Source: an uncultured Clostridia bacterium
GTDB lineage: Bacteria > Bacillota > Clostridia > Christensenellales > UBA1242
DNA: 64,000 nucleotides
Assembly: GCA_934757825.1 (NCBI GenBank)
Contig: CAKVLP010000001.1
Location: forward strand, 366,869-430,868
Direction of reading: 5' to 3'
Position numbers and translations under genes: made by a program. Numbering within the stretch: position 1 is the stretch's first letter; each line of letters starts with the position of its first letter. The notes beneath the pieces were generated by a model. It did no database searches and had not been told where the DNA came from. It worked only from the letters and a program-made list of their open reading frames with translations. Positions 1,427-32,301 of the stretch are shown piece by piece.

Positions 1427-4400
1427 ATGAAAAATCCAGCATTAAAAAAGAAAAGGAATTGGAGAAATATACTTACATATATTGCTACATATATTGTAGT
1501 AACTTTTTCCGTTGCTTTTGTGGTTGTTTCGTTTTCCAACAAAACTTATTCGGCTGGAAACACCGAACTAAAACCTAACACCAGTAGTTCGAGCGCGCTT
1601 GGAATGATGGTTACGCGCCTTATGGAAATGCAGGACGCCAACCTTGTGCTCAATGTAGACGCCGATAGAGGTGAGGACGAGATTGGGCTACAAGCCGACA
1701 TAAACCTTGTGATGTATCCGGGTTTGGAGGGCGCCGAAGTTAATGTAAACGCCGGACTTACCTACAACGATATATACTTTGATGTTAGTTTGACATACAA
1801 AGACGGAATGGCATATGTGTCGATTGGCGACAAAAATTATAGTATGAGCGCGTCGAGCATTATGTCGGCGACAATGAGCGTGTTGTCACTATGCGGAATT
1901 GACATTGACCTTAGTGGCGACCTTATGTCGAGTTTCGATATGAGTTTGCTAGATAGCCTTGGCGAGATTAAAGAGGAAAAACTTGATAATGGCGCTAAAT
2001 TAACAATCGCCCTTAACGACGCTATTAAGGTAGTTATACTTACTGACAAAGACTATAATATTAAAAATGTAAACTTAGACCGCATTACACTTAGCGGAAT
2101 GAATGTGGGTGCAAACGTGGTTTTCAATTCCACAAATAAGGGAACAAAAGTTAATGTTCCTAGCAAAGAATTTGTGGACGTAAGCGAAAGCGTTGGGCTT
2201 ATTGAAACCCTTTACAATACAGTTGCTGGCAAGAAAATTGGATTTAACTTTGACGCATTTGAAAGCCAAGTAAGCGTTGCGCTTGACCTTGAAAACAACA
2301 GTATGCAAGCAAAAGTTAACGCGCTTGACAACGACTTTGCACTTACTTTTAAAGACAACAAAATTTATTTGGACGCGGGTGTGCTAAAATTAAAATCCGA
2401 CCTTCCAAAGTTTGATTTACAACAACTTACTGGCGTTGTGGGTGCTTTGAGCGACGAGCAAGCGGACAAAATTAAAACAGTTTTGACTAAGGCTTACGAC
2501 GCGGTTAAAAATATTAACCTTAAAAATATCACCAAAACTGAATATGGATATGCTGTTAACTTTAACGATACACTAATTAAGTTTAAAGTAGTAGATGGCA
2601 AAGTAAATAGCATTGAAGTGGACGATACTTGCATTATCAACTTGTTTAGCGACGTTGCAATTTCGGTGGCAGACGAAAACTTTACAAATGTGACCAACTT
2701 AAAGTTCTTGCTACAACCTATTAGATCGCTTCTTAACGACAAGCAGTTTAGTGCTAATGTAGAACTTAGTGTATCCGACTTTACTCTTAACGGCATACTT
2801 AGCGTAGACTTTAAAGACAACAAACTTGTGCAGTTTAAGGCAGAGGTTATGGGTGTTGAAGTTATGCTAACCGTTACAAAAGACGGCGTGTACTTAAAAG
2901 CGGACGACATTAAGGTTATGACCGATTTTGCGTCGATTAGCAATGTGCTAGACGAGTTAAAATCGGACAGCGACAAGACAGATATTAACGACACACTTCA
3001 AAGAATTTTGAAAAAAACTATTGAGTTTGTAAAACCTAGCGCGAGCCAACTTGACGTAAAATATGGCGACTATACAATTAGCGTTGTTGCCGACGCGGGC
3101 AAATTTGATAGCATTAAAATTGCAAGCGACAAATTAAACGCAAACGTTAAATTTGCGGACGAATTTACAGTTGAGCAAAACTTTGAAGATTATGAAAAAA
3201 TAGACATCACAAAAGAAAAAATTGAAAGTATCAAAAACGCTGTTACTGGTAAAGTATATTCCTTTGACGGCACAGTAAATATTGGCGACACCACAATTGG
3301 TATCGAGGCAAAAGCGGATTTGACCGATTTACAAGACATCAAAGCCGAAGCGAAAATTGTGGCATATGACAAAACAATTGAAGTAAATGTTCAAGACAAC
3401 ACAATCTATGTAAAACTTGACGGTATTAAAATTAGCGGTTCGTTTAATGAAATAGTAGAACTAATAAACGCTGTTATGGATAGAATTAACGTCGTGCAAA
3501 CATACAGCCTAGAAGCCCCAAGCGGACTAGAAATTAAAGACATTCATCTAAGCCTAGTGGACGAGGAAATCGTGGTTTCGCTTAGCGTTAATGATAAAGT
3601 AATTTCGGCGGTACTTGACCTAAGCGAGTTAAGCCTTGACCTTAGAGCGGGCGAGGTTGTGGCAAGTGTGGCAGTCGATAAAGCAAGCGAGGTTAATACG
3701 CTTAGCCCAGCCGAAACGAGCGAGTACACCGCACAAGCGACACGCCTTTACGACTTGGCTGTTAGCGCCCTTAACACAGCAAAGGCCGAGCGGGTTCACG
3801 CAATTGCAACGCTCAATATCGCGGGCGAGATAATTGAGGTGGAATTAGGACTTGTCCACACCGACACAATCACAGTAAAATTTGAAACCACATTCAAAGG
3901 CATTAAGGTTGTGGGTTATGTGGCAGACAACAAAGTTTACATCAACGTGTTTGATATTTGCTTTATGTTTAACCTTAACAATTTGGATAAAAACCTAAAT
4001 CAAATAGCCGAAATATTCGACCTTGACCTTGGCGCAACTAAGGACATCGCTACAATTATTGAAACAATAAAACTTAACAATATTACAAAATTTGAGACCG
4101 ACAAAAACTCGTTTAAACTTACTTACAACGACATTGCATTAAAAGTGTTTACCTACAACGAGTTGATTTCAAGAGTTCAAGTAAACTATAACGATATTGA
4201 CGTAAATTTCTCAATAACATATCCAAACAATTATAGAATTGTTGTGTCCAACAACCGCGTTATCGAACTTGACAACTTGGCACCTGTTGGCAACGCGTTC
4301 TACAACACATTTAAGTCGCGCTCAATTTCTGGCGACATCGACTTGACGTTTGACCTATTTAAAGAGACCAACAGAATTACTGTAAACTATGGCGTTAAGA

Positions 4401-7400
4401 TTGGCGAAAACTTGACCGACATTTCGGGATATATTAAGACCACATTCAAAAATCTTGACATCAATATTTACTACATTGATAAGACATTCTATCTAGACGT
4501 TATCGGACTAAAATTAAAACTAAAATTTGACGATATTCCAAGCCTAGTAGATTGGATTAACGAAAACTTTGGCACGGATATCAATGTTGATAAATTGTTT
4601 GAAGACTTTAACATTGACGACCTTAGCCTTGACTTTATCACAAACGCGCACTTCGGCGACGACACCGTGACCGCAACTCTAATGGACAATATTCGCATAA
4701 CGGCCGAATACACCGACGTGTTTAATAGGGTTACTTTTGAAAATGGCACAACTAAGGCGATTTTGAATTGCACAAGGTTTGACGACTTTACGCTTAATGC
4801 GGTTGACACCGCCGACTTCGATAATTACACAGTTATTACCGATATTGTGGACGCTATCTACAACACCGCAAAACTAAGACAGTTTAACATCGTGGCAAAT
4901 AGCAAAGTGTTTAGAAACAATGCGGATTATCTAAATATCGACCTAAATCTAGCGCTTGATATTATTGAGAACACATTGGCTGACGGCACTAAGTCTACTA
5001 AGTTAAACGCAGGCGGAAGCGCGCGCGTTAGTGGCGAGACAAATGTTGCCCTAGATGTAAATTATCAAAACGAAAAACTTTATGTAAATTGGGAAGGCTT
5101 AAAACTAAGTATTCACAAAAATAGTATCAAAGAGATTTTGGGAATTGTGTTGCAAGTATTGAATGTAGACACTTCGGGCATTCCTGCACTTGAAAAAATC
5201 AAGAAAGAATTTGACATCGACACCGACAATTTGGGACAAATCGTTCCTACGTTATCGAATATCAATCCACTAAATTACTTGGAGTATATTAAGGGAATTG
5301 ATGTGACCGACGGCAAACTTCAAATTGTTATGAACGGTCAAAAACTTAACGGCGACCCTGACTTCAACCCAGCTATCACATTTGAAATGGCTGGCGGAAA
5401 ACTAGCAAACGTTGAGATTGAAAAACTTTACACTGGCGTTACTGCGGACGAAAATATCACTGTTAGCGTCCAACTAAAAGACTTCAACGGTGTGACCCAA
5501 GTATACGACAACGACTACATTGATATTTCAAATAGTTCGGATATTATAAGGGCATTTGTTAATACTTCGAACATGAACGACTATCATGTAAATGGTAGCG
5601 TTATAATGAACCTAAAACTTGGAAGTCTTGCAATTGATGCTGCAAAACTTAGTGTGGATATTAAAGTAAAACTAGATAATGATAAAAAGCCTATAATTGC
5701 GGTTGAAATTGGAAACTATCCTTTGATTGGTCTTGTTAATAATAAAAACACCAACGGTGTTGGAGATACGGGAATAGGTTTGATAAATCAGCGACATCGC
5801 ACGATTTATATTTATTATCGTGATGGAGAGATGTATCTTCAAACATCGGACGAACAGTGGGGATGGGGATTGATGTCTTATAAACAACTTGATCGGGTTA
5901 CCAAAGTTACACCAAGTTATTTGATGAATAATCTTAATTATTATATGCAGTGGTTGTTGGGCTTTACTGATAAAATTCAATCAAAAATCAACGAGGCAAT
6001 TGAAACAAGTAATAAGAATAAAGAAAAGGCACTTTCGGAAGGTTCTTTTGATTATAGCAATATTATCTTAAACTATGTAAAAAATGGTAACACTCATTCA
6101 TTTGATGTAAACATTGGAAAACTTGCTTACAATGACGACCTTGGCACTCTTCATGTTGATCTATCGACAGTTAATAATGCAAACACCGGAAACAAAGATT
6201 ATTTAGGCACAATCAACTTTAATCTTGATTTATTAAACAGCCTAATAATCTTAAAAACAGATAACAATAACAATTTAAAACTAACCGATATTGGTAGTAG
6301 TGTGGATATTTCTAACGCGTTAGTTGCTCTAAGTGATTCAAGATTCCAACTTGACGGGGAATACGAGAAAGAGGGCACTGGGAAATGGAATATGGCAAAT
6401 CAAGGAGATCGCACGGTTGTGTTGTATGATGGCGAAACATATGTTGCAACACTTACTGGGGCAATTGGTACTGCCATCAATCTTCCAGCATATTCTAATA
6501 GAGTGATTGACGATGGCAAGTCCGAAAAAGTTTATGTGTTCTTAGGCTGGTTTACAGCGGACGGAACGAAGTATACATCTACGGCATATCCTAGATATGA
6601 TACGACATTGTACACTAAGTGGAATTTAATAAGTGAAAGAACATACCATACAATTGAGTTTGTAACTAACGAAAATATTTCAGTAGAAAGTATTACGCGT
6701 TTGAATGGTGAACAGATAAATTTACCAGTGCTTAAAAACATTGAAATGGAGTATGATGATAATACGTCAATTCTAAAAGTGTTTAAGGGTTGGTACTTGG
6801 ATGAAAACTTTACGGAGTTGTATACCTCGGATACAATGCCAGACAGCGATGTTACTTTGTATGCTAAGTGGGAGACTCTGGAAACAAAGACTTACCATGT
6901 AAGTATATTTAGTGCTGGGACAGAGGTGTATAGCGGAAAAGTTCAGGCAGGTGTAAGTTTTGAATTCCCAGTAAACAATTTCTTTAAGAAAGATACTCTG
7001 TATTACTTGGATGCTGACTTTACGACACAAGTGACAAATTTTGTAATTAACAATGATACAACTTGGTATGCTAAAAACAAATACAATTACACAATCTACT
7101 CCAAATATACAACATTAAATGGTGCAGAATATAACAAACTTGAAAATGTTTACGAAGGAAGTACGATTACACTTCCTACATACTCAAATTACGAAATCGA
7201 TAATTTCTCTTATACTACTGAATACCATTTTATGGGGTGGAGTAAAGATGGAGATGCTACACTTATTAAAGGAAACACTGTTGTAGTCGCTGGCGATAGC
7301 AGTTATGTTGCAGTGTGGGAAGTAAAAGAGTATTGTGTTGTGACCTTTAATCCTAAGGGTTGGGCAAATCCAGCATGGTGGACTATCACTAAGAATATTA

Positions 7401-7672
7401 GATACATCTCTAATAGTTCGGTTTCGGGCACCAACAATAATACACTTAAAGTAGAGCGTGGTAAGAGTATTGATTTGACAATTTACAAAGCAACTTGCGT
7501 GTATGGCTATAAATTTGGCATAGAAAAGAAATACAGTTTTGAAACTGTAGCTTGGGCTGAAAATGCGATAAATCTATACGATGTTGCTGGTAGTTCACAG
7601 AAGTATAGCGGTGATACTACAATGACGATTGACAGCAATATTACTTTACAACCAGTATGGAAACATGTTTAA
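1427..7672 (+). CDS. giant (2081 aa) N-terminally anchored surface protein with C-terminal Listeria-Bacteroides (Flg_new / InlB B-repeat type) repeats
   Basis: RBS AAGGAGAA at 1418-1425, 9 nt after the previous stop. N-terminal TM helix (ILTYIATYIVVTFSVAFVVVSF). Uninterrupted 6.2-kb ORF. C-terminal units such as FLGWFTADGTKYTS...TLYTKWN and FKGWYLDENFTELYT...VTLYAKWE. Confidence 0.85.
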   Translation: MKNPALKKKRNWRNILTYIATYIVVTFSVAFVVVSFSNKTYSAGNTELKPNTSSSSALGMMVTRLMEMQDANLVLNVDADRGEDEIGLQADINLVMYPGLEGAEVNVNAGLTYNDIYFDVSLTYKDGMAYVSIGDKNYSMSASSIMSATMSVLSLCGIDIDLSGDLMSSFDMSLLDSLGEIKEEKLDNGAKLTIALNDAIKVVILTDKDYNIKNVNLDRITLSGMNVGANVVFNSTNKGTKVNVPSKEFVDVSESVGLIETLYNTVAGKKIGFNFDAFESQVSVALDLENNSMQAKVNALDNDFALTFKDNKIYLDAGVLKLKSDLPKFDLQQLTGVVGALSDEQADKIKTVLTKAYDAVKNINLKNITKTEYGYAVNFNDTLIKFKVVDGKVNSIEVDDTCIINLFSDVAISVADENFTNVTNLKFLLQPIRSLLNDKQFSANVELSVSDFTLNGILSVDFKDNKLVQFKAEVMGVEVMLTVTKDGVYLKADDIKVMTDFASISNVLDELKSDSDKTDINDTLQRILKKTIEFVKPSASQLDVKYGDYTISVVADAGKFDSIKIASDKLNANVKFADEFTVEQNFEDYEKIDITKEKIESIKNAVTGKVYSFDGTVNIGDTTIGIEAKADLTDLQDIKAEAKIVAYDKTIEVNVQDNTIYVKLDGIKISGSFNEIVELINAVMDRINVVQTYSLEAPSGLEIKDIHLSLVDEEIVVSLSVNDKVISAVLDLSELSLDLRAGEVVASVAVDKASEVNTLSPAETSEYTAQATRLYDLAVSALNTAKAERVHAIATLNIAGEIIEVELGLVHTDTITVKFETTFKGIKVVGYVADNKVYINVFDICFMFNLNNLDKNLNQIAEIFDLDLGATKDIATIIETIKLNNITKFETDKNSFKLTYNDIALKVFTYNELISRVQVNYNDIDVNFSITYPNNYRIVVSNNRVIELDNLAPVGNAFYNTFKSRSISGDIDLTFDLFKETNRITVNYGVKIGENLTDISGYIKTTFKNLDINIYYIDKTFYLDVIGLKLKLKFDDIPSLVDWINENFGTDINVDKLFEDFNIDDLSLDFITNAHFGDDTVTATLMDNIRITAEYTDVFNRVTFENGTTKAILNCTRFDDFTLNAVDTADFDNYTVITDIVDAIYNTAKLRQFNIVANSKVFRNNADYLNIDLNLALDIIENTLADGTKSTKLNAGGSARVSGETNVALDVNYQNEKLYVNWEGLKLSIHKNSIKEILGIVLQVLNVDTSGIPALEKIKKEFDIDTDNLGQIVPTLSNINPLNYLEYIKGIDVTDGKLQIVMNGQKLNGDPDFNPAITFEMAGGKLANVEIEKLYTGVTADENITVSVQLKDFNGVTQVYDNDYIDISNSSDIIRAFVNTSNMNDYHVNGSVIMNLKLGSLAIDAAKLSVDIKVKLDNDKKPIIAVEIGNYPLIGLVNNKNTNGVGDTGIGLINQRHRTIYIYYRDGEMYLQTSDEQWGWGLMSYKQLDRVTKVTPSYLMNNLNYYMQWLLGFTDKIQSKINEAIETSNKNKEKALSEGSFDYSNIILNYVKNGNTHSFDVNIGKLAYNDDLGTLHVDLSTVNNANTGNKDYLGTINFNLDLLNSLIILKTDNNNNLKLTDIGSSVDISNALVALSDSRFQLDGEYEKEGTGKWNMANQGDRTVVLYDGETYVATLTGAIGTAINLPAYSNRVIDDGKSEKVYVFLGWFTADGTKYTSTAYPRYDTTLYTKWNLISERTYHTIEFVTNENISVESITRLNGEQINLPVLKNIEMEYDDNTSILKVFKGWYLDENFTELYTSDTMPDSDVTLYAKWETLETKTYHVSIFSAGTEVYSGKVQAGVSFEFPVNNFFKKDTLYYLDADFTTQVTNFVINNDTTWYAKNKYNYTIYSKYTTLNGAEYNKLENVYEGSTITLPTYSNYEIDNFSYTTEYHFMGWSKDGDATLIKGNTVVVAGDSSYVAVWEVKEYCVVTFNPKGWANPAWWTITKNIRYISNSSVSGTNNNTLKVERGKSIDLTIYKATCVYGYKFGIEKKYSFETVAWAENAINLYDVAGSSQKYSGDTTMTIDSNITLQPVWKHV
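6407..7330 (+). repeat. about 5 tandem protein-level Flg_new-like repeats inside the 2081-aa ORF
   Basis: Recurrent pattern [FY]xGW[FYS]x(15-25)[LV][YW]A[KV]W at roughly 70-80 aa spacing (GWFTADG..YTKW, GWYLDEN..YAKW, YYLDADF..WYAK, MGWSKDG..VAVW). Boundaries approximate. Confidence 0.6.
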
Positions 7673-13988: not shown

Positions 13989-14411
13989 ATGATAGTAGAT
14001 GAAATTAAAAAAGCAAATATTGAGGCGCTTAAAAATCACGACGCAAACCTAAGAAGCATTTATAGTGTTATTATGAACAAAATAATGCTAGCCGGCATCA
14101 ACGCGCGCGCCAACGACACCGAAGTGACCGATGTGGACGTTGTTAAGATTATCCAAAAGACCATTAAGGAACTTGACGAAGAGGCTGAAAACTACAAAAA
14201 AGTTGGCAATATGGAAGAGTGCAATAAAATTGGACTTCAAAGAAAAGCAATCGAAAAATACTTGCCAGCAATGCTAAGCAAAGAGAAAATTAAAGAAATT
14301 ATTATGGGCTTAGACGACAAAACAGTGCCTAGCGTTATGCGTCACTTTAAAACAAACTACGCTGGTCAGTGCGACATGAAAGAAGTTAGCGAAGTTTTAA
14401 AATCACTTTAA
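13989..14411 (+). CDS. GatB/YqeY domain protein
   Basis: 140 aa. N-terminal IKKANIEALKNHDANLRSIYSVIMNKI and helical repeat layout typical of YqeY. 1 nt after the upstream stop. Confidence 0.6.
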   Translation: MIVDEIKKANIEALKNHDANLRSIYSVIMNKIMLAGINARANDTEVTDVDVVKIIQKTIKELDEEAENYKKVGNMEECNKIGLQRKAIEKYLPAMLSKEKIKEIIMGLDDKTVPSVMRHFKTNYAGQCDMKEVSEVLKSL

Positions 14412-14463
14412 TTTAAATGTTTTATATCCACTTTACTCAAAACTTAATAAGTATTATAAAAAA

Positions 14464-14490
14464 AACAACTCCTGGTGGGGTTGTTTTTTT
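14464..14490 (+). terminator. intrinsic terminator of the MazG-like/PanE-like/YqeY operon
   Basis: AACAACTCC-tggt-GGGGTTGTT (one G-U pair) followed by TTTTT. Confidence 0.7.
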
Positions 14491-14720
14491 ACTCATTTTG
14501 TGTGAAATATGTACAATTTGTAATTGTTGTTTTAAGTTTTAAACTATGTGATTATCAAAATTTGTTTCGACAAAAAACAACATTTTCTACTTTTTACCTA
14601 AAAATTACGACTTTTTGACAATAAGTGTATACTTGTTGGAAAAGTCGAAAAACAATTTAAAAATTTTCAATATTTTTGTTTGACACCCTATTTTTGTTAT
14701 GATAGTATCGAGGTAATAAA

Positions 14721-14768
14721 GCACAATTTGTTGTAGTTGTGGCAAAACACAAACACAATATATTGATT
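14721..14768 (+). promoter_or_regulatory. tandem NrdR-box candidates upstream of nrdD
   Basis: ACACAATATATTGATT (14753-14768) matches the NrdR-box consensus acaCwAtATaTwGtgt at about 14/16. GCACAATTTGTTGTAG (14721-14736) matches about 11/16. The start-to-start distance is 32 bp, the usual phasing of paired NrdR boxes. Confidence 0.5.
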
Positions 14769-14797
14769 GCCTTTATAATATATAAGGAGAGTATGTT

Positions 14798-17179
14798 ATG
14801 ATTACTAAAATTAGAAAAAGAGATGGTAGACTTGCAGACTACGACATCACGAAGATTGAAAATGCTATCGCAAAGGCTATGATGAGCATTGGCGACGGCG
14901 AAATTAAAGACTGCAAAAAGATGGCAAAAATCACCGAACTGTATTTGACCGAAAAATTCGTTGACGCTGTTCCATCTGTTGAAGACATTCAAGATATTGT
15001 TGAAAATGTTTTGATGAAAAATGGCTACGAAGATGTTGCGAAGGCTTACATTATATATCGTAGAGACCACGAAAAAATTAGAAACATTAGCAATACTTTC
15101 CTAGATTATAAGGCGACTGTTGATAAGTATCTAAAACTTGCCGATTGGCGTGTTAAGGAAAACAGCACTGTTACTTATTCGGTGGGTGGGCTTATTTTGT
15201 CCAACAGCGGTGCAATCACAGCCAACTACTGGCTAAGCGACGTGTACGACAAGGAGATTGAGCAAGCGCACAAAAATGCCGATATTCACATTCACGACCT
15301 TAGTATGCTTACAGGCTATTGCGCTGGCTGGTCGCTAAAACAACTTATCAAAGAGGGGCTTGGCGGGGTTCCTGGCAAAATCACAAGTAGCCCAGCAAAA
15401 CATCTAAGCACTCTTTGCAACCAAATGGTTAATTTCCTTGGCATTATGCAAAACGAATGGGCTGGCGCACAGGCGTTTAGTTCGTTTGACACATATCTTG
15501 CGCCATTCGTAAAGATTGACAACCTAAGTTATAAAGAAGTAAAACAAGGGCTTCAATCCTTTATTTACGGTGTTAACACTCCAAGCCGTTGGGGAACTCA
15601 GGCGCCATTTACAAACATCACGCTTGACTGGGTTGTTCCAAACGACTTAGCCGAACTTAACGCTATTGTTGGTGGTGTTGAGCAGGATTTTAAATATAAA
15701 GACTGCGTTAAAGAAATGGCGATGATCAATAAGGCGTTTATCGAAATTATGATTGAGGGCGACGCAAACGGCAGAGGATTCCAATATCCTATCCCTACAT
15801 ATTCTATCACCAAGGATTTTGATTGGTCGGACACCGAAAATAACCGCTTGTTGTTTGAAATGACCACCAAATATGGCACACCATATTTCTCCAACTACAT
15901 CAATAGCGATATGGAACCTAGCGATGTTAGAAGTATGTGTTGTAGGTTAAGACTTGACCTTAGAGAACTTCGCAGAAAATCGGGCGGATACTTTGGAAGT
16001 GGCGAGTCGACCGGAAGCGTGGGCGTTGTTACAATCAATATGCCACGTATTGCGTACTTGTCGAAATCGGAAGAGGAGTATTTTGACCGCCTTGGCAAAA
16101 TGATGGATATTTCCGCACGAAGCCTAAAAATAAAACGTGACACAATCACAAAACTTCTTGAAAATGGATTGTATCCTTACACCAAGAGATATCTTGGAAC
16201 ATTTGCAAATCACTTCTCCACAATCGGTCTAGTTGGTATGAACGAGGCATGTTTAAACGCCGTGTGGATTGGACAAGATTTAACACACAAGGAAGCACAA
16301 GAATTTACTAAAAAGACCCTTAACTTTATGCGCGATAGACTATCGACCTATCAAGAGGAATATGGCGACCTTTATAACTTGGAAGCAACTCCTGCTGAGA
16401 GCACATCATATCGTCTTGCTAAACACGACAAAGAGCGCTGGCCAGATATCATCACTGCCAACGACGATAGCAAGGTGCCATATTACACCAATTCTAGCCA
16501 CTTGCCAGTTGGATACACCGACGATATTTTCAAAGCACTTGACGTTCAAGACGAACTTCAAACCTTGTACACTTCGGGCACGGTTTTCCACACGTTCTTG
16601 GGTCAACGCCTAGAAGACTGGAAAGCAACAATGAATTTGGTTAGAAAAATTGCTGAAAACTACAAACTTCCTTACTACACAATGAGCCCAACTTATTCGG
16701 TTTGTGCGACTCACGGCTACTTGGACGGCGAACAACACACTTGTCCACATTGTGGCGGGCCAACTGAGGTGTATAGCCGAATTACCGGATATTATAGACC
16801 GGTTGCAAACTGGAACGACGGCAAGAGCCAAGAGTTTAAGGATAGAAAAAATTACAATATCGCAACATCTAAAATGGAACATTGCCACAAAAAAGATTGC
16901 GAGTGTGCTTGCCACGAAGAGGAACATCACGTAGACGAAAAGTTTGCAAAACCAGTGTTGTTTACATCTCCAACTTGTCCAAATTGCAAAATGGCAAAAA
17001 CCATAATGACTAATGCAAAATTCGATTTCGATACGCTTGACGCTGTGGAAAACCGAGAACTTTGCGAGCGACTTGGAATTAAAAAAGCACCTACGCTTTT
17101 AATTCAAAAGGGCGATATGCAAATGATGTTTGATAATGTGAGTGACATTAAAAAATATATAGAAGGATTGAAAAAATAA
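14798..17179 (+). CDS. nrdD: anaerobic (class III) ribonucleoside-triphosphate reductase with fused C-terminal thioredoxin-fold domain
   Basis: RBS AAGGAGAG. ATP-cone-like N-terminus (ITKIRKRDGRLADYDITKIENAI). C-terminal Cys cluster VCATHG...CPHCG and glycyl-radical motif SRITGYYRPV near aa 664. Then an extra ~130 aa. Confidence 0.9.
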   Translation: MITKIRKRDGRLADYDITKIENAIAKAMMSIGDGEIKDCKKMAKITELYLTEKFVDAVPSVEDIQDIVENVLMKNGYEDVAKAYIIYRRDHEKIRNISNTFLDYKATVDKYLKLADWRVKENSTVTYSVGGLILSNSGAITANYWLSDVYDKEIEQAHKNADIHIHDLSMLTGYCAGWSLKQLIKEGLGGVPGKITSSPAKHLSTLCNQMVNFLGIMQNEWAGAQAFSSFDTYLAPFVKIDNLSYKEVKQGLQSFIYGVNTPSRWGTQAPFTNITLDWVVPNDLAELNAIVGGVEQDFKYKDCVKEMAMINKAFIEIMIEGDANGRGFQYPIPTYSITKDFDWSDTENNRLLFEMTTKYGTPYFSNYINSDMEPSDVRSMCCRLRLDLRELRRKSGGYFGSGESTGSVGVVTINMPRIAYLSKSEEEYFDRLGKMMDISARSLKIKRDTITKLLENGLYPYTKRYLGTFANHFSTIGLVGMNEACLNAVWIGQDLTHKEAQEFTKKTLNFMRDRLSTYQEEYGDLYNLEATPAESTSYRLAKHDKERWPDIITANDDSKVPYYTNSSHLPVGYTDDIFKALDVQDELQTLYTSGTVFHTFLGQRLEDWKATMNLVRKIAENYKLPYYTMSPTYSVCATHGYLDGEQHTCPHCGGPTEVYSRITGYYRPVANWNDGKSQEFKDRKNYNIATSKMEHCHKKDCECACHEEEHHVDEKFAKPVLFTSPTCPNCKMAKTIMTNAKFDFDTLDAVENRELCERLGIKKAPTLLIQKGDMQMMFDNVSDIKKYIEGLKK
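16946..17179 (+). other. thioredoxin/glutaredoxin-like CPxC domain fused to NrdD
   Basis: PVLFTSPTCPNCKMAKTIM...ELCERLGIKKAPTLLIQKGD: beta-strand, CPNC (Cys codons at 16976 and 16985), helix, then a cis-Pro-type APT loop. Preceded by the linker MEHCHKKDCECACHEEEHH (16874-16930). Confidence 0.65.
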
Positions 17180-17181
17180 TT

Positions 17182-18090
17182 ATGTTTGATATAACAATAA
17201 TTGGCAGTGGGGTGGCAGGAATGACTGCTGCCCTTTATGCTTTGCGAGGTGACAAAAGCGTGCTTGTGCTAGAGCGTGAAACCTACGGCGGACAGATCGC
17301 CAAGTCGCCAAAAGTGGAAAATTACCCTACCATTAAGAGCATCTCGGGCTACGAACTTAGCGACAAAATGTACGAGCAGATAATCGACCTTGGCGCAAAT
17401 TTCGAACTTGAAGAGGTCGAAAAACTCGAAAAGGACGGAGATATATTTAAAATAACCACCGATTATCACACATACGAGTCGAAAAGTGTGGTTATTGCCA
17501 ACGGTGTAAAGCCAAGAATGTTGGGGCTAAATAGGGAAGACGAGTTGCTAGGCAAGGGCGTGTACTATTGCGCCATTTGCGACGGTCCATTCTATAAGGG
17601 CAAAGACGTTGTTTTGGTGGGTGACGGCAACAGCGCTATGCAGTACGCGCTACTTCTAGCCGGATTTTGCCATAAGGTAACAATGGTCACAATGTTTGAT
17701 ATGTTCTTCGGCGAAAAAGCGCTTGAAGAAGCAGTGAGAAATAACAAAAAAATTGAAATTATCCCGAATGCGGTCGCTAGCAAGTTGATTGGCGAGGAGT
17801 CGCTTGAAAAGGTTGAGTTTAAAAGGACTGATGGCTCAACATTCGAGATAGCCACCCCTGCACTTTTTGTTGCGATTGGTCAGGTGTCAGACAACGATAA
17901 GTTTAAGGATTTGGTCGACTTAGATAATGCCGGCTATATTTTGGCGGACGAAAGTTGCACCACCAAGACCGCTGGGCTTTTTGTCGCTGGGGATTGCCGT
18001 GCGAAAAGGGTTAGACAGGTCGCAACCGCAGTAGGCGACGGTGCAGTGGCTGGCACGCAAGCGGTTAATTATGTAAATTCGCTTAAATAG
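17182..18090 (+). CDS. trxB: low-Mr thioredoxin reductase homologue, atypical pyridine-nucleotide site
   Basis: FAD motif IIGSGVAGMTAA, redox-active CAICDG, second GxGxxA (GDGNSA), C-terminal GDCR...AVGDGAVAG. The HRRxxxR motif is replaced by TMFDMFF. Confidence 0.8.
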   Translation: MFDITIIGSGVAGMTAALYALRGDKSVLVLERETYGGQIAKSPKVENYPTIKSISGYELSDKMYEQIIDLGANFELEEVEKLEKDGDIFKITTDYHTYESKSVVIANGVKPRMLGLNREDELLGKGVYYCAICDGPFYKGKDVVLVGDGNSAMQYALLLAGFCHKVTMVTMFDMFFGEKALEEAVRNNKKIEIIPNAVASKLIGEESLEKVEFKRTDGSTFEIATPALFVAIGQVSDNDKFKDLVDLDNAGYILADESCTTKTAGLFVAGDCRAKRVRQVATAVGDGAVAGTQAVNYVNSLK

Positions 18091-18098
18091 GAAAAATT

Positions 18099-18782
18099 AT
18101 GAAAATATATGGATTAGAAAAGTTGTCAATGGTCGATTTCGGAAGCCTTTGCTCCGCAGTGATTTTCACGGGCGGGTGCAATTTTAGGTGCCCGTTTTGC
18201 CACAACTCTGGACTTGTGAATTTGGACGTAACTCCGCTTGACGAACAAGAGGTTTTTGATTATCTAATCTCTCGAAAAAAACTACTCGACGGCGTAGTTG
18301 TTAGCGGAGGCGAGCCTACACTTTATCCCGATTTGCCCGAGTTTATTAAAAAAATTAAGGATTTGGGATATAAAATAAAACTCGACACCAATGGCACAAA
18401 CTATGCGATGCTAAAAAAACTAATTGACGAAAAACTTGTGGATTTTGTGGCTATGGACATTAAAAACTCGCTTGAAATGTATCCGCTCACTGCGGGCACA
18501 ACTTGTGGGCAAGAGGATATTGTAAAAAGCATAGAACTTTTGAAAACCAACGTGGTTGACTACGAATTTCGCACAACTCTTGTGGACGGTTTGCATACTA
18601 ATGCGTCCATTAAAGAAATGGGCGAAATTGTTAAGGGCGCTAAAAAAATGTATCTTCAAAAATTTGTCGATAATGGAACAACAATAAAAGGCGGTTTAAA
18701 AGAAGTGCCAAAAGACAAAGCCGAGGAATATAAAAATATCCTTTCAAATTATGTGACCTCTGTTTCCCTCCGCGGATACTAA
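18099..18782 (+). CDS. nrdG: anaerobic ribonucleotide reductase activating protein (radical SAM)
   Basis: CxxxCxxC cluster in GGCNFRCPFCHN, SAM-binding GGEPTL. 227 aa, directly downstream of nrdD and the trxB-like gene. Confidence 0.85.
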   Translation: MKIYGLEKLSMVDFGSLCSAVIFTGGCNFRCPFCHNSGLVNLDVTPLDEQEVFDYLISRKKLLDGVVVSGGEPTLYPDLPEFIKKIKDLGYKIKLDTNGTNYAMLKKLIDEKLVDFVAMDIKNSLEMYPLTAGTTCGQEDIVKSIELLKTNVVDYEFRTTLVDGLHTNASIKEMGEIVKGAKKMYLQKFVDNGTTIKGGLKEVPKDKAEEYKNILSNYVTSVSLRGY

Positions 18783-18910
18783 CACCTCACTTGGGACATT
18801 AAAACTTTGATAAGGTCTATACGTAAAAAAGACCTTATATAACAAAACTAATTAACGCTATCAAGTCTTGCAGAAAAAAATTTTTATATTAAATGTTTAA
18901 AATAATAAAT

Positions 18911-18947
18911 AAAAAACTTTGTAGGTTATGCAAAGTTTTTTCTTTTG
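18911..18947. terminator. hairpin/terminator, copy A of a second duplicated hairpin
   Basis: A-run, CTTTGTA-ggtta-TGCAAAG (one U-G pair), T-run. Confidence 0.5.
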
Positions 18948-19079
18948 TAACAAACTTGAAAATTTTTTAATTTACAATTAACACAATTATCATTTAAACA
19001 AATCGTAACTATACTCATCTTGTTGATTTGACTTGTACGCTCTTTCTTTGTTATCATAAAAACAAGATAAGGAAGAGTT

Positions 19080-19442
19080 ATGAAAATTAAAGATTGGGAA
19101 AAGTATGTAACTGAAAAATATGGTGCAGTAAAAGTAACAGAATTCGACGATTTAAAAAACTATTTAAGTGACCAGCGAAACTATGCACACAATTTTACAC
19201 CAGAGGAAATCACGGAAACAGAGATTATGAACGATGAATATTATGGCGCATACATTTTCGATGAAAATAAAATCGCTGGCAGAGAAGTGATAACCAAATA
19301 TGAATCTTGTTGGAATAGATTGATTGTTGTATTGGCATCAGATGATAAGGTCAATATTTCAAACTATTGTATTAATGCTGCTGGTGGTTTAACCGATGAG
19401 GAAAGTAGCAGGTTCTATAATGACATTAACCCATTAAAATGA
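19080..19442 (+). CDS. hypothetical cytoplasmic protein (120 aa)
   Basis: RBS AAGGAAGAG. Acidic, no TM segment or signal peptide. No family recognised. Bracketed by the duplicated hairpins. Confidence 0.55.
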   Translation: MKIKDWEKYVTEKYGAVKVTEFDDLKNYLSDQRNYAHNFTPEEITETEIMNDEYYGAYIFDENKIAGREVITKYESCWNRLIVVLASDDKVNISNYCINAAGGLTDEESSRFYNDINPLK

Positions 19443-23817: not shown

Positions 23818-24345
23818 ATGGAAACAAAATATAACACTCCCAACGAACTTAATCTTAAAGTAACTGGTGTCAACAATCAAGTTTTGATTAACGAGGAATG
23901 TTGTACATCTATAAACATAATTTTGCGAAACGACGGGCAAATCCAAACAAGTTTTTTGGGCGCCCATAACCCCGAGATTTTGCACAACTTGGAAAAGGCA
24001 ATGAAAGCATATTTTAAGGGAATTAAGAAAACCCTTAAAGCGCATTTTGTGGAACTTGACGAAGAAGAGTGTCACGACAAATGTTGTCACGAGCACGAAG
24101 ATATTGAGAACGACAAGAAAAACTGCTGTTGCCATAGTCACGACGAGGCTTGCGATGGGCAAAATAAAGACGATTTTAAGCAGTCGGAAGAATGTTGTGG
24201 CGACAAAAAAGATAAAAATTGTTGTCAAAAAGAAGAAAAACACGGCGAGTGCTGTCAAGGCAAAAAGGGCAGTAATTGCAAGGGCGAAGGCAAACACGGC
24301 TCAAAACCAAAAGTAGGCAAAAGCGGAAAGAAAAAGGAAAAATAA
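23818..24345 (+). CDS. Cys/His-rich protein (possible metal-binding protein)
   Basis: RBS AAGGAGAA. About 80-aa ordinary N-terminal domain followed by a ~95-aa tail with about 17 Cys, mostly as CC/CCC next to His/Glu/Lys (ECHDKCCHEHED, NCCCHSHDEAC, ECCGD, NCCQKE, ECCQGKKGSNC), ending in a Lys-rich tail. Confidence 0.65.
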   Translation: METKYNTPNELNLKVTGVNNQVLINEECCTSINIILRNDGQIQTSFLGAHNPEILHNLEKAMKAYFKGIKKTLKAHFVELDEEECHDKCCHEHEDIENDKKNCCCHSHDEACDGQNKDDFKQSEECCGDKKDKNCCQKEEKHGECCQGKKGSNCKGEGKHGSKPKVGKSGKKKEK

Positions 24346-28632: not shown

Positions 28633-31600
28633 ATGAAAAAGAAGTTAACATATATACTTTCAATCCTTATGTTTATCCCTTGTATGTTGGGACTTGTGGC
28701 CTGCGGAAGCAATAAGGGCGACGGAAAAGGGAATGGAGGCGGAAGTGGAGATGGTGGCAAACAGCCGTCCAATCCTAGCAGTTTGACTGAGGAAGAAATA
28801 AAGTCATATATCCCAAATGAGTTTTCATTCAAATCGGGCGTTAAAATGACGATTTCCACAAATAGCACGTTTAATGGACAAACAGCCGAAACTGTTTTGA
28901 CCTATTACAAAACTGGTAACAACGAAATCGTTTCGACGCAAAACCAGTTCGATTCCATATCAGACGGCGAAGTTATAAAAAACGACAACGATAGGATATT
29001 TATCAAAATCGGCGATAAATACTACGAAAAAACTCGCGACAACTTGCGTGACAAGCAATACACCACTGAGGAAACAAGCAAGGGCGGTTATCAAAGATTT
29101 ATTGCACAAGAAATGAAATATCTAAGCGATTTGACTAAGTACATTGATTACGCCGAAAACCTAAACGTAGAGATGTCAAAAGACATTTTGGGCTCGGACT
29201 ACAAAACCACATATTCTGGCAAACAAGTTAAGGAATATGATGAGGATTTAAGAAAAAATGTAATTACATACGACATTAAAATGAGCACAATATTTGTGTT
29301 GTCGTTCCCTGAGGATAATTGGTATCCTACAAAAATTGAAGATGCTTTCTATGCACCAACCGAACTTAAAGCATATTCAGTGGACGTAAAAGTTATCCTT
29401 AACGAGGACAAAACTTACAATCACGTAGAACTACTTGTACAAAGACACAAAGATTACACTCCAGCTAGCTTAGAAGACGAAAAATATGAAAAAACCGTAA
29501 TCGACTTTGAATACGGTAAAAAGGTTAATTTCAATAATCCCGACTTGCTAGAAGGATTAAAGAGCACTCCATCTTTTGGCGAAGTTACATTTGACGGCGC
29601 CGAAATTGGCGATTTCAAAAGTAGATATAGCAATGGCGAAAAAGTTACTCTTCCTACTCCAACCAAGGACGGCGCAACATTCTTGGGTTGGTACTATGAT
29701 GCGGGTTATACAATGCCAGTTGAAAATAATGTAATAACAGTTGTGGGAAGCACAAGCAACTACACCAATAGAGTGTTTGCAAAATGGAGCAACGGCGGCC
29801 GCCCAACACTTGTTATGAACGGCGGAAAGTTCTCTGCAAACGCAGAAGAGAATTTCAACGAAGCAGTTTCGGTTGGAAATATGCGTAGTGTTGTGCTAGA
29901 GCAATATGGCAAGGCGTTTGTGGGCTTCTACAAAGACGCCGAATTTAGCGAGATGATAGACTATTACAGCGAAGAGCCACTTACTTCCGATATGACATTC
30001 TATGCAAAATGGGTTAACTTAGAAAGAGTTACTATCAACACTAGCCACTTTACATACAAGACAATCGACCAAATGGGAAAACCTGGCTACAAACTTTACG
30101 CCCCAGTGGTTGAAACCGAAGCGGGCTGGATTTTCAAAAACTGGATTGACAACAATGACGTGACTTACACCGAGTCGACGGTCAACAACATTAAGTTTGG
30201 CGAAATCACATCATTGACCGCTGTTTTCGAACAAGGCACAATCGTGCGAGTTCACGACATCGAAACCGTGCTAGGTTGGGTAGAGACCGAGGGCGATGAC
30301 AAAGACGGCAAAGAACTAGATACTTACTTTATTTACGGCGAAGACACCGAAAAATCTATAAAATACAACACAACAAGATATAACGATTGGCTAAACGAAA
30401 ATAAAGGGCAAGAAGCAGATGATTCCCAATTCCCTGTTAACAACGACCTTATATACACAGTGACAGTCCCAACAGGAAAATATATAACTAACGAATGGGG
30501 AGGGGGAGGTTTTTCGGATATGTGGGATCAATTGCCTAAGGACATGAAGAACAAATATCGTAGCACCGTTCCAGTACCTGGCTGGACTATCCCATATATG
30601 GGCTTTACTGTACCGCTATATTACTACGGCTTGTCCACAAATAAGCCAACAGTCGATAACCCATGGCAAAGATCTAACAATGTTATGGCAACGGGAGAAC
30701 CGATTGATATGTGGGTGCTTGTTAAGCCACACGATATCGTTAACTTCCAAATCAAAATATATGGCTTTGATGAGCCTATTAAATGTAGGGATTATTTTGA
30801 TACAGAAGCCGAGCCAGTTGGTGGCAAATACGGCAGAGATGACGAAGTGTTCTTCCCATCGTACTGGTACGAAACATACAATTTCCCAGCAGGCACAACT
30901 TACAAAGATTGGGTTTTGGAACCTGATCACATTAAGTACTATGATTACAATTGGTGGGAAGATAGAGTTATAGGCACAGCAGGTGACTTCCAAGCATTGA
31001 AAGAGGCGATTATAAGAGAAAAATTATGGTTGGACGGCGACACTCCTACGCTATATGTAAAACTAGAAAGATACACCACAGTTAATGCTCATGTGGGCGA
31101 TACAACAACAAAGTTATATCCTATTTTCAAAGACTTTATGGAAGAAAATGATAGTGCACTTATTAGATATTTGAGTTATGGATATTCGGAAGACGAGGGC
31201 GAGACTCAATATGTTCCGCTTCCTGCGAAATACTATTTCGATATGCCTTTCAATGGTATTTACTATGCTCCTGTATCCACGCTTGGAGTCCCAGCGGGCA
31301 AAATTATTGAGGGTTATTACTACGATGCCCAGTTTACAAATCCTTGCGACCTATTTGGCACTATGATGTTTGATAGACTCTATGCTGGCGAAAATATTGA
31401 CATTTATGCTAAGTTTGTTGACGCCGATTCTATACAAGTTCGTGTTGAAAACAAATCATATTTCTATGACAAATCTTACTCTTTTATAAGGAAGGATGAA
31501 ACAACTGAAAATGGCACAATTAAGAAATATGGGACAGTAACACAAAATGATAATTCGGAGTATTTCTTCACATTTACTTCTCCCGTGGGTCTTTATGACG

Positions 31601-32301
31601 GATGGAGAGAAAACCTAACGGAAATGAACAATGCAGACTATAAATATCTTGATGTGCTTTTGGAACTTGGATATTTAAGGAAAGTGGATTTACTTCAAAA
31701 GACTGCAAAATATGACTTCGTTACCGACGGCAATGATGCTATGAAAAACTACACTGTTGAAAACACTTCTGGCACAAAAATTGGCGACTTGTACAATGGT
31801 TACAATAATCCCGATAAAGACGAATCAGAGGGTGGAGAAACAACCACCACTACTGGCAGATACTACTATGTATATGAGTTTACGAATGTCGACTCAAACG
31901 GCACACTTGTGTTTGATTATAACGACCTTATTGCAATTTGGCAAAGATTTATGGAAAAATATGATGGGACACTTATGTTCAAAATTTCACTTAACGACGT
32001 ATTCAATTATGTAAATGTTACCGAAGTAAGGTACTTCACACAAAATACTTGGAGCCTTGATTCTGATGGCAACATTGACCTAAATGGTTTTAGTGACGGT
32101 GAATGTAATGTTGTTATTGGAAATAATTGTTATTTACATTATAACGACAAAGATGGGAATGGCAACTCAGGTTACATCCGTGTGATTTTAGGGGCTTATG
32201 ATAATGATGATACACGAAGAGAAGAGCAAGATGTATTTTATCTTGACAAAACATTCACAATGTGCACAGAACTTGATCATAGAAACAATAGTAATTCATA
32301 A
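28633..32301 (+). CDS. large (1222 aa) surface lipoprotein with Flg_new-type repeats
   Basis: RBS AAGGAGAA. Lipoprotein signal MKKKLTYILSILMFIPCMLGLVAC followed by a Gly-rich linker (GSNKGDGKGNGGGSGDGG). Repeats FLGWYYDAGYT...VFAKWS, FVGFYKDAEFS...FYAKWV, WIFKNWIDNND...AVFE. Confidence 0.85.
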   Translation: MKKKLTYILSILMFIPCMLGLVACGSNKGDGKGNGGGSGDGGKQPSNPSSLTEEEIKSYIPNEFSFKSGVKMTISTNSTFNGQTAETVLTYYKTGNNEIVSTQNQFDSISDGEVIKNDNDRIFIKIGDKYYEKTRDNLRDKQYTTEETSKGGYQRFIAQEMKYLSDLTKYIDYAENLNVEMSKDILGSDYKTTYSGKQVKEYDEDLRKNVITYDIKMSTIFVLSFPEDNWYPTKIEDAFYAPTELKAYSVDVKVILNEDKTYNHVELLVQRHKDYTPASLEDEKYEKTVIDFEYGKKVNFNNPDLLEGLKSTPSFGEVTFDGAEIGDFKSRYSNGEKVTLPTPTKDGATFLGWYYDAGYTMPVENNVITVVGSTSNYTNRVFAKWSNGGRPTLVMNGGKFSANAEENFNEAVSVGNMRSVVLEQYGKAFVGFYKDAEFSEMIDYYSEEPLTSDMTFYAKWVNLERVTINTSHFTYKTIDQMGKPGYKLYAPVVETEAGWIFKNWIDNNDVTYTESTVNNIKFGEITSLTAVFEQGTIVRVHDIETVLGWVETEGDDKDGKELDTYFIYGEDTEKSIKYNTTRYNDWLNENKGQEADDSQFPVNNDLIYTVTVPTGKYITNEWGGGGFSDMWDQLPKDMKNKYRSTVPVPGWTIPYMGFTVPLYYYGLSTNKPTVDNPWQRSNNVMATGEPIDMWVLVKPHDIVNFQIKIYGFDEPIKCRDYFDTEAEPVGGKYGRDDEVFFPSYWYETYNFPAGTTYKDWVLEPDHIKYYDYNWWEDRVIGTAGDFQALKEAIIREKLWLDGDTPTLYVKLERYTTVNAHVGDTTTKLYPIFKDFMEENDSALIRYLSYGYSEDEGETQYVPLPAKYYFDMPFNGIYYAPVSTLGVPAGKIIEGYYYDAQFTNPCDLFGTMMFDRLYAGENIDIYAKFVDADSIQVRVENKSYFYDKSYSFIRKDETTENGTIKKYGTVTQNDNSEYFFTFTSPVGLYDGWRENLTEMNNADYKYLDVLLELGYLRKVDLLQKTAKYDFVTDGNDAMKNYTVENTSGTKIGDLYNGYNNPDKDESEGGETTTTTGRYYYVYEFTNVDSNGTLVFDYNDLIAIWQRFMEKYDGTLMFKISLNDVFNYVNVTEVRYFTQNTWSLDSDGNIDLNGFSDGECNVVIGNNCYLHYNDKDGNGNSGYIRVILGAYDNDDTRREEQDVFYLDKTFTMCTELDHRNNSNS

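Follow-up and report, generated by a model that had tools for sequence, protein, structure and literature searches.

What reduces a thioredoxin reductase (TrxR)-like flavoprotein that lacks the residues with which its relatives hold the 2'-phosphate of NADPH, and what does such a protein reduce in turn? Both questions are raised by a stretch of 64,000 nucleotides (nt) from an uncultured Clostridia bacterium (assembly GCA_934757825.1, contig CAKVLP010000001.1), here called the window, in which a protein of 302 amino acids (aa) is encoded between nrdD, the gene for a class III ribonucleotide reductase (RNR), and nrdG:

14798..17179, + strand: nrdD, 793 aa (PF13597, 636 bits; PF03477; NF006126, 1127 bits)
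17182..18090, + strand: gene for the TrxR-like flavoprotein, 302 aa (analysed with Pfam, NCBIfam, PDB, AlphaFold2 and Foldseek)
18099..18782, + strand: nrdG, radical-SAM activase of NrdD, of the NrdG2 type, 227 aa (TIGR02495, 203 bits; cutoff 131)

We favour the reading, to which we give a probability of roughly 60%, that this protein is a flavoprotein without an NADPH site which acts as the dedicated reductase of a redoxin domain fused to NrdD, with ferredoxin or flavodoxin as its most likely electron donor. The finding is best described as a widespread and previously undescribed variant among TrxR-like enzymes independent of NAD(P)H, one tied to a redoxin-fused class III RNR, and not as a new kind of system.

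The nucleotide site of the reductase

The product of the open reading frame (ORF) at 17182-18090 is a flavoprotein of the low-molecular-weight TrxR fold. Pfam assigns it to Pyr_redox_2 (PF07992, 138.8 bits), and its best phmmer matches in the PDB are NADPH-dependent TrxRs at about 208 bits and 36-38% identity; its score against the thioredoxin-disulfide reductase model TIGR01292 (306.6 bits) lies under the trusted cutoff of 343.45, and its homologues carry merely the NCBI label 'FAD-dependent oxidoreductase', FAD being flavin adenine dinucleotide. With the AlphaFold2 model (mean predicted local distance difference test score 84, predicted TM-score 0.76), Foldseek returned low-molecular-weight TrxRs and AhpF only, the best TM-score being 0.76 to structures that are open or in the flavin-reducing conformation (5mh4, 3r9u, 3cty), a ranking that mostly tracks the flavin-oxidizing versus flavin-reducing conformation and thus does not discriminate among these proteins. 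The elements by which low-molecular-weight TrxRs dock thioredoxin (Trx), namely GKG ahead of the CxxC and the sequence CDGPFY, are kept. Four segments are central to what follows:

17203..17220, + strand: GSGVAG, FAD dinucleotide motif (aa 8-13)
17569..17580, + strand: CAIC, redox-active disulfide (aa 130-133)
17620..17646, + strand: GDGNSAMQY, altered pyrophosphate loop (GDGNSA, aa 147-152)
17674..17718, + strand: KVTMVTMFDMFFGEK, standing in for VxxxHRRDxxRA, the 2'-phosphate site (aa 165-179)

Where NADPH-dependent enzymes have VxxxHRRDxxRA, the protein reads VTMVTMFDMFFGE. The phmmer alignment to NADPH-dependent TrxRs of the PDB is full length and gapless around the 2'-phosphate segment, and in it VTMVTMFDMFFGEK falls column by column on VTVVHRRDQLRAQK (5uwy), VYLVHRRDHLKAAR (4zn0) and VTIVHRRDTLRAQK (7aaw), so that Thr takes the place of the His of HRRxxxR, Met and Phe that of the two adjacent Arg, and Phe that of the downstream Arg. 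This agrees with a first-pass annotation, made from the DNA letters alone, which had placed the same four replacements in KVTMVTMFDMFFGEK at nt 17674-17718. That annotation had also specified beforehand that an HRRxxxR equivalent elsewhere in the protein would speak against its claim; the NADPH-type domain (aa 116-246) contains no displaced HRR-like cluster, holding just three Arg (118, 186 and 215) and one His (164). The structural model, in which residues 165-169 form a strand, 170-178 a loop and 179-186 a helix, accordingly predicts that the substitutions sit at the end of strand beta-2, the location of the 2'-phosphate site. The adjoining pyrophosphate motif GGGxxAxE is likewise not matched, the protein having GDGNSAMQY with G-D-G (Asp148) for the canonical GGG. 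The statement that the FAD motif, the active site and the second dinucleotide motif are all intact thus stands for GSGVAG and CAIC and was overstated for GDGNSA, given Asp148 against Gly in 100% of NADPH-type relatives and Ala at position 149 in 109 of 216 family members.

The nearest 120 database homologues (61-100% identity) have the same replacement of HRR without exception. From database hits together with genome and metagenome loci we assembled a family set of 216 sequences, whose consensus is T-[LM]-F-D-[KR]-F-F-[GA]-[DE] with a pyrophosphate loop G-D-[G/A]-N-[ST]-A; the redox CxxC is present in 216 of 216 and takes the form C-A-[IVLT]-C in 215. Conservation at the two segments in this set is as follows:

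Position 147: G, 100%
Position 148: D, 100%
Position 149: A in 109, G in 107 (Ala breaks GxGxxA)
Position 150: N, >99%
Position 152: A, 100%
Position 154: Q, >99%
Position 155: Y, 100%
Position 170: T, 95%
Position 171: L or M, 99%
Position 172: F, 97%
Position 173: D, 96%
Position 174: K or R, 89% (193 of 216); the window protein has a rare Met
Position 175: F, 92%
Position 176: F, 99%
Position 177: G or A, 99%
Position 178: E or D, 100%

In a comparison with 66 HRR-type (NADPH-type) relatives, only 13 columns combine conservation within the family with rarity in the NADPH type. The five with the sharpest contrast are all part of the nucleotide pocket (D148 against G, Y155 against D/E, T170 against H, F172 against R, F176 against R), and each is 95-100% conserved in both groups, the Asp148 column being Gly in every one of the 66. 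The Gly equivalent to position 149 closely contacts the pyrophosphate of NAD(P)H (PMC5627308). Because the replacement recurs across the 120 nearest homologues and is conserved among the 216 members, we take it for a family signature, neither chance nor decay; and since the sharpest differences from the NADPH type all lie in the nucleotide pocket, the family's main divergence is a remodelled NADPH site, with selection acting on the new residues.

The redoxin-fused NrdD and its paired reductases

The gene immediately upstream provides the candidate substrate. Pfam and NCBIfam models divide NrdD into an ATP-cone, an NRDD core and a C-terminal domain of generic glutaredoxin (Grx)/Trx fold, bearing out the earlier description of a fused redoxin:

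15314..15331, + strand: GYCAGW with the beta-A active-site Cys (GYC, aa 173-175; aligned with Tyr124-Cys125 of T. maritima NrdD)
15935..15946, + strand: MCCR, double-Cys finger loop with Met380 (aa 380-383; motif classes from PMC9669993)
16376..16399, + strand: NLEATPAE (aa 527-534; Glu aligned with the Glu of NIEQVPAE in T. maritima NrdD)
16778..16792, + strand: RITGY, glycyl-radical motif
16877..16930, + strand: Cys/His-rich linker EHCHKKDCECACHEEEHH from the glycyl-radical domain to the redoxin domain (NrdD aa 694-711)
16949..17176, + strand: fused Grx/Trx-fold redoxin domain (PF00462, 30.3 bits; PF00085, 23.8 bits)
16976-16987, + strand: CPNC active site of the fused redoxin, invariant in orthologues

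When one genome per species was scanned with the family alignment, nrdD::redoxin stood immediately upstream of the reductase gene at 33 of 33 loci whose reductase homologue is at least 45% identical, and at none with a more distant homologue (<45%). Metagenome contigs, sampled independently through the redoxin domain alone (pattern CPNCK[MTV][AS]K), gave the same picture: the redoxin is fused to NrdD at 77 of 80 loci, the remaining three being truncated by the contig end, and a TrxR-like gene lies directly downstream at 79 of 80. The two genes are a median of 2-5 nt apart. When every ORF of 34 loci was clustered, the recurrent genes were three only, namely nrdD::redoxin, the reductase gene and nrdG; the last is in many cases missing from the locus or encoded on the other strand, and the pairing is with the redoxin-fused nrdD. 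This near-obligate pairing, together with the kept Trx-docking elements, makes it very likely on genomic grounds that the TrxR-like protein serves the NrdD-fused redoxin as its dedicated reductase, and it lends support to the initial proposal that the fused domain is the substrate.

The cassette is abundant in gut metagenomes, with at least 600 stretches per scan, and a relative of the redoxin domain is encoded in 514 of the 600 redoxin-seeded stretches listed. Its carriers are uncultured gut and rumen Bacillota: Clostridia of the Christensenellales (Candidatus Borkfalkia, Stercoripulliclostridium), Acutalibacteraceae and many metagenome-assembled genomes (MAGs) labelled 'Bacilli' (Candidatus Onthovivens, Acholeplasmatales-like). 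Two carrier loci labelled Alistipes and Muribaculaceae are probably binning errors or gene transfers. Of the genomes, L001, an uncultured Clostridia MAG, is closest to the window, with a reductase 82% and an NrdD core 94% identical. Our literature search for an nrdD-trxB-nrdG module found just transcriptome papers and none describing the module, while PMC6187632 lists one grx::nrdD fusion (Lachnospiraceae TWA4).

NrdD itself seems equipped to receive electrons from a redoxin. The mark of redoxin-dependent (NrdD2) chemistry is a third Cys together with a Glu (PMC4493059, PMC9669993), and the window NrdD has the corresponding residue set of beta-A Cys, second finger-loop Cys and, by alignment, Glu. 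The GYC beta-A Cys and the MCCR loop occur throughout the fused NrdDs, and the Glu of NLEATPAE in 31 of 32; the formate-type NrdD of P. copri reads ILATPAE at this place. This Glu is probably the proton donor that Wei et al. 2014 reportedly described for NrdD2. The double-Cys loop, the beta-A Cys and the Glu together make redoxin-driven turnover of NrdD plausible. CxC-type motifs (CEC, CGC, CAC, CYC, CCC) recur in the linker of many orthologues, not all, and the Cys/His-rich linker could be a shuttle dithiol, like the C-terminal tails of class I/II enzymes, or a metal site.

Not every reductase in this position is of the window's type. Among 113 paired reductases, each adjoining nrdD::redoxin, about 95 belong, like the window protein, to the GD / T[LM]FD type and about 11 to a QN type, which has GGGNSA, V-Q-N-[LIV]-x-x-L-T-[CAS]-E and a CV[AS]C active site and is found downstream of nrdD::redoxin at loci L028, L034, L109, L110, L129, L134, L144, L149-L151 and L154. 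The QN motif is shared with Thermosipho africanus TrxR 7jyp (VQNLPYLTAAK), which hints that the QN type is a Thermotoga-like pair of NADH-type reductase and Grx-like protein. HRRDxxR is kept in one of the 113, a canonical GGGDTA/HRRDVFR reductase of a Eubacteriales MAG (L035:10001-10903) that lies 185 nt from nrdD::redoxin. A few are degenerate (L004, L091, L103, L122), and three of these (L004, L091, L103), with GGGNS[AG] and a variable loop (FVSGNKFSGE, FVWEDYFTGE, FVRSSACSGE), fall inside the GD-type clade.

In neighbour-joining trees, predefined groupings had bootstrap values near zero; with the motif columns masked, the GD-type clade (including L004, L091 and L103) and the QN-type clade, both defined after inspection of the trees, obtained 43/100 and 71/100, and the two joined 3/100. 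Both nest among Firmicute HRR-type TrxRs. As the two clades are separate, reductases that serve redoxins fused to NrdD seem to have given up the NADPH site on at least two occasions, in a phylogeny that is only moderately resolved, and the 302-aa protein looks like an independent derivative of a Firmicute TrxR with a signature of its own.

Some related genes were met outside the cassette. L139 has an HRR-type gene that does not adjoin nrdD. L051:179-1102 encodes a distant GD-type relative (33% identity, GDGNSAMQYA, LTLTNNLFGE) with no nrdD ahead, which shows that the nrd link does not extend to the whole of the wider GD-type group; the upstream DNA is AT-rich and non-coding, a dUTPase-like ORF (4688-5176) is among the neighbours, and the region may be a phage or mobile element. 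TrxR-like proteins with no nrd link in Ruminococcus MAGs (L031, L033, L036-L038, L042) read [FY]RR[DNE]xPTA[ST], without the His and the fourth Arg. Two Clostridia MAGs (L045, L047) encode a 287-aa TrxR-like protein in which both NADPH motifs are gone (SKNGSG/SKKGSG, LDSGN/LDSED) and CDAN follows the CxxC; its length is like that of the FFTRs (flavin thioredoxin reductases that depend on ferredoxin), yet it scores 175 bits against NADPH enzymes and 114 bits against CaFFTR. Against the PDB, the L047 protein and two more relatives without the motifs (P0199, P0208) each matched NADPH enzymes best.

The electron donor and its alternatives

We propose that the nucleotide site of the family has been converted rather than merely lost, as suggested by the change from HRRxxxR to T-[LM]-F...F, the Tyr in place of an acidic residue after the loop, the invariant Asp and the Ala in half of the family. 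With the 2'-phosphate site gone family-wide and the pyrophosphate loop altered, it is likely that the protein does not use NADPH, and it is probably not reduced by NADH either. In the scheme that we favour, an external donor, most likely ferredoxin or flavodoxin in its reduced form, from a gene at another place in the genome, would pass electrons to the FAD of the TrxR-like protein and thence to its CAIC dithiol; this would reduce the tethered CPNC redoxin of NrdD, which in turn would reduce the active-site disulfide formed by the beta-A Cys and a finger-loop Cys of NrdD (MCCR, with the Glu).

For the identity of the donor, ferredoxin or flavodoxin is our leading candidate, at somewhat less than even odds. 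Three considerations point that way: both parts of the pyridine-nucleotide site are remodelled, the precedents without the motifs are ferredoxin-dependent or inert towards NAD(P)H, and activation by NrdG needs a low-potential one-electron carrier, so that the cell supplies one whenever the RNR is in use. The first-pass annotation had suggested a donor other than NADPH, possibly ferredoxin, flavodoxin or NADH; a donor other than NADPH is supported by the vanished 2'-phosphate site and the altered loop, while ferredoxin or flavodoxin is a candidate that we too only infer, no donor gene being linked to the cassette.

The precedents deserve a closer comparison. FFTRs of clostridia and cyanobacteria lack the motifs and are reduced by ferredoxin (PMC8154056, PMC12796991, PMC10880999), the FAD of GvFFTR having a midpoint potential of -448 mV (PMC12796991), while archaeal DFTR is reduced by F420 and the donor of Thermoplasma TrxR is unknown in the literature. 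PMC10880999 delimits such enzymes as having a TrxR fold that lacks GxGxxA as well as HRRxxxR; in our family HRRxxxR is absent, and GxGxxA is formally present in the window protein and broken (GDANSA) in half of the orthologues. Like the FFTRs, the window protein combines the low-molecular-weight TrxR fold, FAD and CxxC with loss of the 2'-phosphate motif and an altered pyrophosphate loop, comes from an anaerobic Firmicute and, by prediction, reduces a partner of Trx fold. It differs in length (about 302 vs about 290 aa), in having no C-terminal Trp tail, in the signature GD[GA]N[ST]A...T[LM]FD[KR]FF[GA][DE] and in a partner that is a domain fused to NrdD, whereas that of the FFTRs is free thioredoxin. 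Nor does it group with the characterized FFTRs: in the phmmer search of the PDB, CaFFTR2 (6gnc, rank about 25) reached 138.6 bits, the CaFFTR entry 6gna 121.7 bits and GvFFTR (5j60) 124.2 bits against about 208 for NADPH enzymes, a placement made by score ranking only.

TRi of Desulfovibrio, with GEGxxAxN and TQGK instead of GGGxxAxE and HRRD, proved inert in experiments with NADH and with NADPH (PMC5627308). It resembles the window protein in the acidic residue of the pyrophosphate loop (GEG in D. vulgaris TRi, 5nii; GDG in the window), in a Thr for the His of HRRD, and in being restricted to anaerobes with the donor unknown. The two are unlike in TQ/NGK vs T[LM]FD and GEGxxAxN vs GDGNSAMQ, the phmmer score is 96.8 bits only (5nii), and while the window family adjoins nrdD::redoxin, TRi is monocistronic, with the general Trx1 as its substrate. 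By these comparisons the 302-aa protein lies outside the characterized FFTR and TRi clades.

On the side of the RNR, the closest parallels are NrdD2 with thioredoxin in Neisseria bacilliformis and NrdD3 with NrdH and a ferredoxin-disulfide reductase in Methanosarcina barkeri (Wei et al. 2014, 2015, in the summaries of PMC9176816, PMC9669993 and PMC4493059). These too are class III enzymes with an extra finger-loop Cys that are reduced by a redoxin instead of, or besides, formate, and that of M. barkeri is linked to ferredoxin. In the window, however, the redoxin is fused to NrdD and the finger loop is MCCR, not SCCR/QCCR; its reductase, a TrxR-family flavoprotein, is not an iron-sulphur enzyme like ferredoxin-thioredoxin reductase, as in M. 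barkeri, and it has no NADPH site, in contrast to the TrxR of E. coli type used for N. bacilliformis. Fusions of Grx to RNR (Facklamia ignava Grx-NrdB; PMC6187632) share the principle of a fused redoxin as dedicated reductant, but the F. ignava protein is a class I enzyme with an N-terminal CPYC Grx driven by glutathione and NADPH, and the window's is class III with a C-terminal CPNC domain and an adjacent flavoprotein reductase of its own.

It should be noted that several observations weigh against the favoured reading. The window protein itself still formally matches GxGxxA (GDGNSA). No ferredoxin or flavodoxin gene is conserved among the recurrent ORFs of the 34 loci, and none was found in the 64-kb window with signature regular expressions for 4Fe-4S ferredoxins and flavodoxins. 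The analogy with FFTRs is functional, not phylogenetic. The QN-type minority of nrd-linked reductases has GGGNSA and QNLxxLT as in 7jyp, and this, together with the preference of T. maritima TR for NADH, implies that a pyridine-nucleotide donor exists in the wider group. Finally, since NrdD keeps the Met of MCCR, formate could be its main reductant.

Of the alternatives to the favoured reading, an NADH-dependent TrxR-like reductase is unlikely, though it has arguments on its side. The loss of the Arg residues would here only switch the enzyme from NADPH to NADH, as may be compared with Desulfovibrio TR3, with the Thermotoga TR and its Grx-like partner, and with C. pasteurianum Cp34/Cp9, which we take to be an NADH-type TrxR-like enzyme and a Grx-like protein. 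In the Thermotogae TrxRs (T. maritima TR, 7jyp) and Cp34/Cp9, as proposed for the window cassette, a TrxR-like flavoprotein without HRR reduces a small Grx-like CxxC protein, the QN-type reductases linked to nrd keep GGGNSA and share QNLxxLT with Thermosipho TrxR 7jyp, and the window protein has its formal GxGxxA; for T. maritima TR, NADH is reported as the preferred donor and a Grx-like protein as the partner (PMC5627308). Those enzymes, however, keep GGGxxA and use NADH, whereas the window protein is of the GD type with an altered loop, and GD and QN types form separate clades in the trees. Moreover, the end of beta-2 has no acidic residue (Thr170), where TR3-like proteins (L062, L064) read VEEM; Asp148 is invariant beside the pyrophosphate site, Gly149 has become Ala in 109 of 216 members, and the same change from Gly to an acidic residue is found in TRi, which is inert to NADH (PMC5627308).

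Also unlikely, and ranked next, is that the flavoprotein and redoxin are not the turnover reductant at all: NrdD would run on formate through the Met of MCCR, and the pair would repair or regulate it (e.g. after adventitious disulfides have formed on exposure to O2) or feed the NrdG activase. Met380 is indeed kept and is compatible with formate, 'thioredoxin-only' NrdD subclades being those without the finger-loop Met, and Burnim et al. consider Met-bearing double-Cys enzymes equipped for either reductant (PMC9669993). The formate-independence of the route suggested at the outset is therefore only a possibility, as the window enzyme retains the Met implicated in formate chemistry. The position of the reductase gene between nrdD and nrdG would suit a role in activation, but it is the redoxin-fused nrdD that the reductase gene accompanies, nrdG being in many loci absent or on the other strand; neither the reductase's CxxC nor the redoxin's CPNC varies, and NrdD has the third Cys and the Glu of disulfide chemistry.

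That the protein is still an NADPH-dependent TrxR, binding NADPH through other residues, is very improbable. Its overall similarity is greatest to NADPH-dependent TrxRs (about 208 bits, 36-38% identity) and position 174 is basic (K/R) in 193 of 216 members, but the window protein has Met there, all four 2'-phosphate ligands are changed to Thr, Met/Leu, Phe and Phe family-wide, the TIGR01292 score is below its cutoff, and a lone Lys at the 2'-phosphate site of TRi gave no use of NADPH (PMC5627308). A decaying or non-functional paralogue, for which the missing motif alone might speak, is hardly credible in view of FAD motifs, CxxC and replacement motif conserved in 216 sequences from many species, and of the kept synteny and tight coupling to nrdD.

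Genomic setting and significance

The three genes, separated by gaps of 2 nt (nrdD and the reductase gene) and 8 nt (the reductase gene and nrdG), look like one operon, since they are tightly packed and a terminator-like hairpin and a promoter-like site precede nrdD; the annotation of a TrxR homologue within an nrd operon is thereby corroborated.

14459-14490: terminator-like hairpin of the gene preceding nrdD
14680..14708, + strand: promoter-like site TTGACA-17-TAGTAT with TG, upstream of nrdD (consensus scan only)
14753..14768, + strand: ACACAATATATTGATT, a palindrome resembling an NrdR box, after the promoter-like site and ahead of the nrdD start codon

The palindrome ACACAATATATTGATT is the top NrdR-box match in the window, with 2 mismatches, in a window-wide match total that is not above chance, and we regard it as a lead only. 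A weaker NrdR-box-like sequence at 14722-14737, 31 bp upstream of it, fits the spacing of tandem NrdR boxes. An Rfam scan of 14300-19200 for RNA elements gave no match.

A search with tblastn found no second TrxR in the window. The only other protein with an FAD motif, of 370 aa (38282-39394, +; MYDVIVIGAGASGAMCA...), gives a weak TrxR-like match over the FAD motif only and is without CxxC-type TrxR features. Elsewhere, a 175-aa ORF (23818-24345, +) that neighbours the gene for a ychF-like GTPase has a very high content of Cys, His, Lys and Glu (e.g. CCHEHEDIENDKKNCCCHSHDEACDGQ, ECCGDKKDKNCCQKEEKHGECCQGKKGSNC) and may encode a metal-binding protein, and three huge ORFs on the + strand (1427-7672, 28633-32301 and 51418-63711; 2081, 1222 and 4097 aa) with signal-peptide-like or transmembrane-like N-termini presumably encode cell-surface proteins.

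For redoxin-driven class III RNRs, one example with thioredoxin and NADPH and one archaeal example with an iron-sulphur ferredoxin-disulfide reductase have been known so far. The cassette described here consists of a redoxin fused to the enzyme and a private reductase that has systematically lost its NADPH site. More tentatively still than for the donor itself, we speculate that its three genes wire the class III RNR to the ferredoxin/flavodoxin pool for both activation and turnover, without formate and without NAD(P)H, and that the aromatic cluster of Y155, F172, F175 and F176, filling the former NADPH cleft, is a surface for docking or gating of the donor; this would be a third, flavin-based route of re-reduction, widespread in uncultured gut Clostridia and Bacilli.

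Such genes are now called 'thioredoxin reductase' or, generically, 'FAD-dependent oxidoreductase'. As a compact, genetically defined two-protein system with a tethered substrate, the cassette could serve for tracing the donors of NAD(P)H-independent TrxR-like enzymes such as TRi and Thermoplasma TrxR. DNA-precursor synthesis in these gut anaerobes is probably fed by a donor other than NADPH, and if that donor is ferredoxin or flavodoxin, the supply of deoxyribonucleotides would be tied to fermentative low-potential electron flow and not to NADPH or formate.

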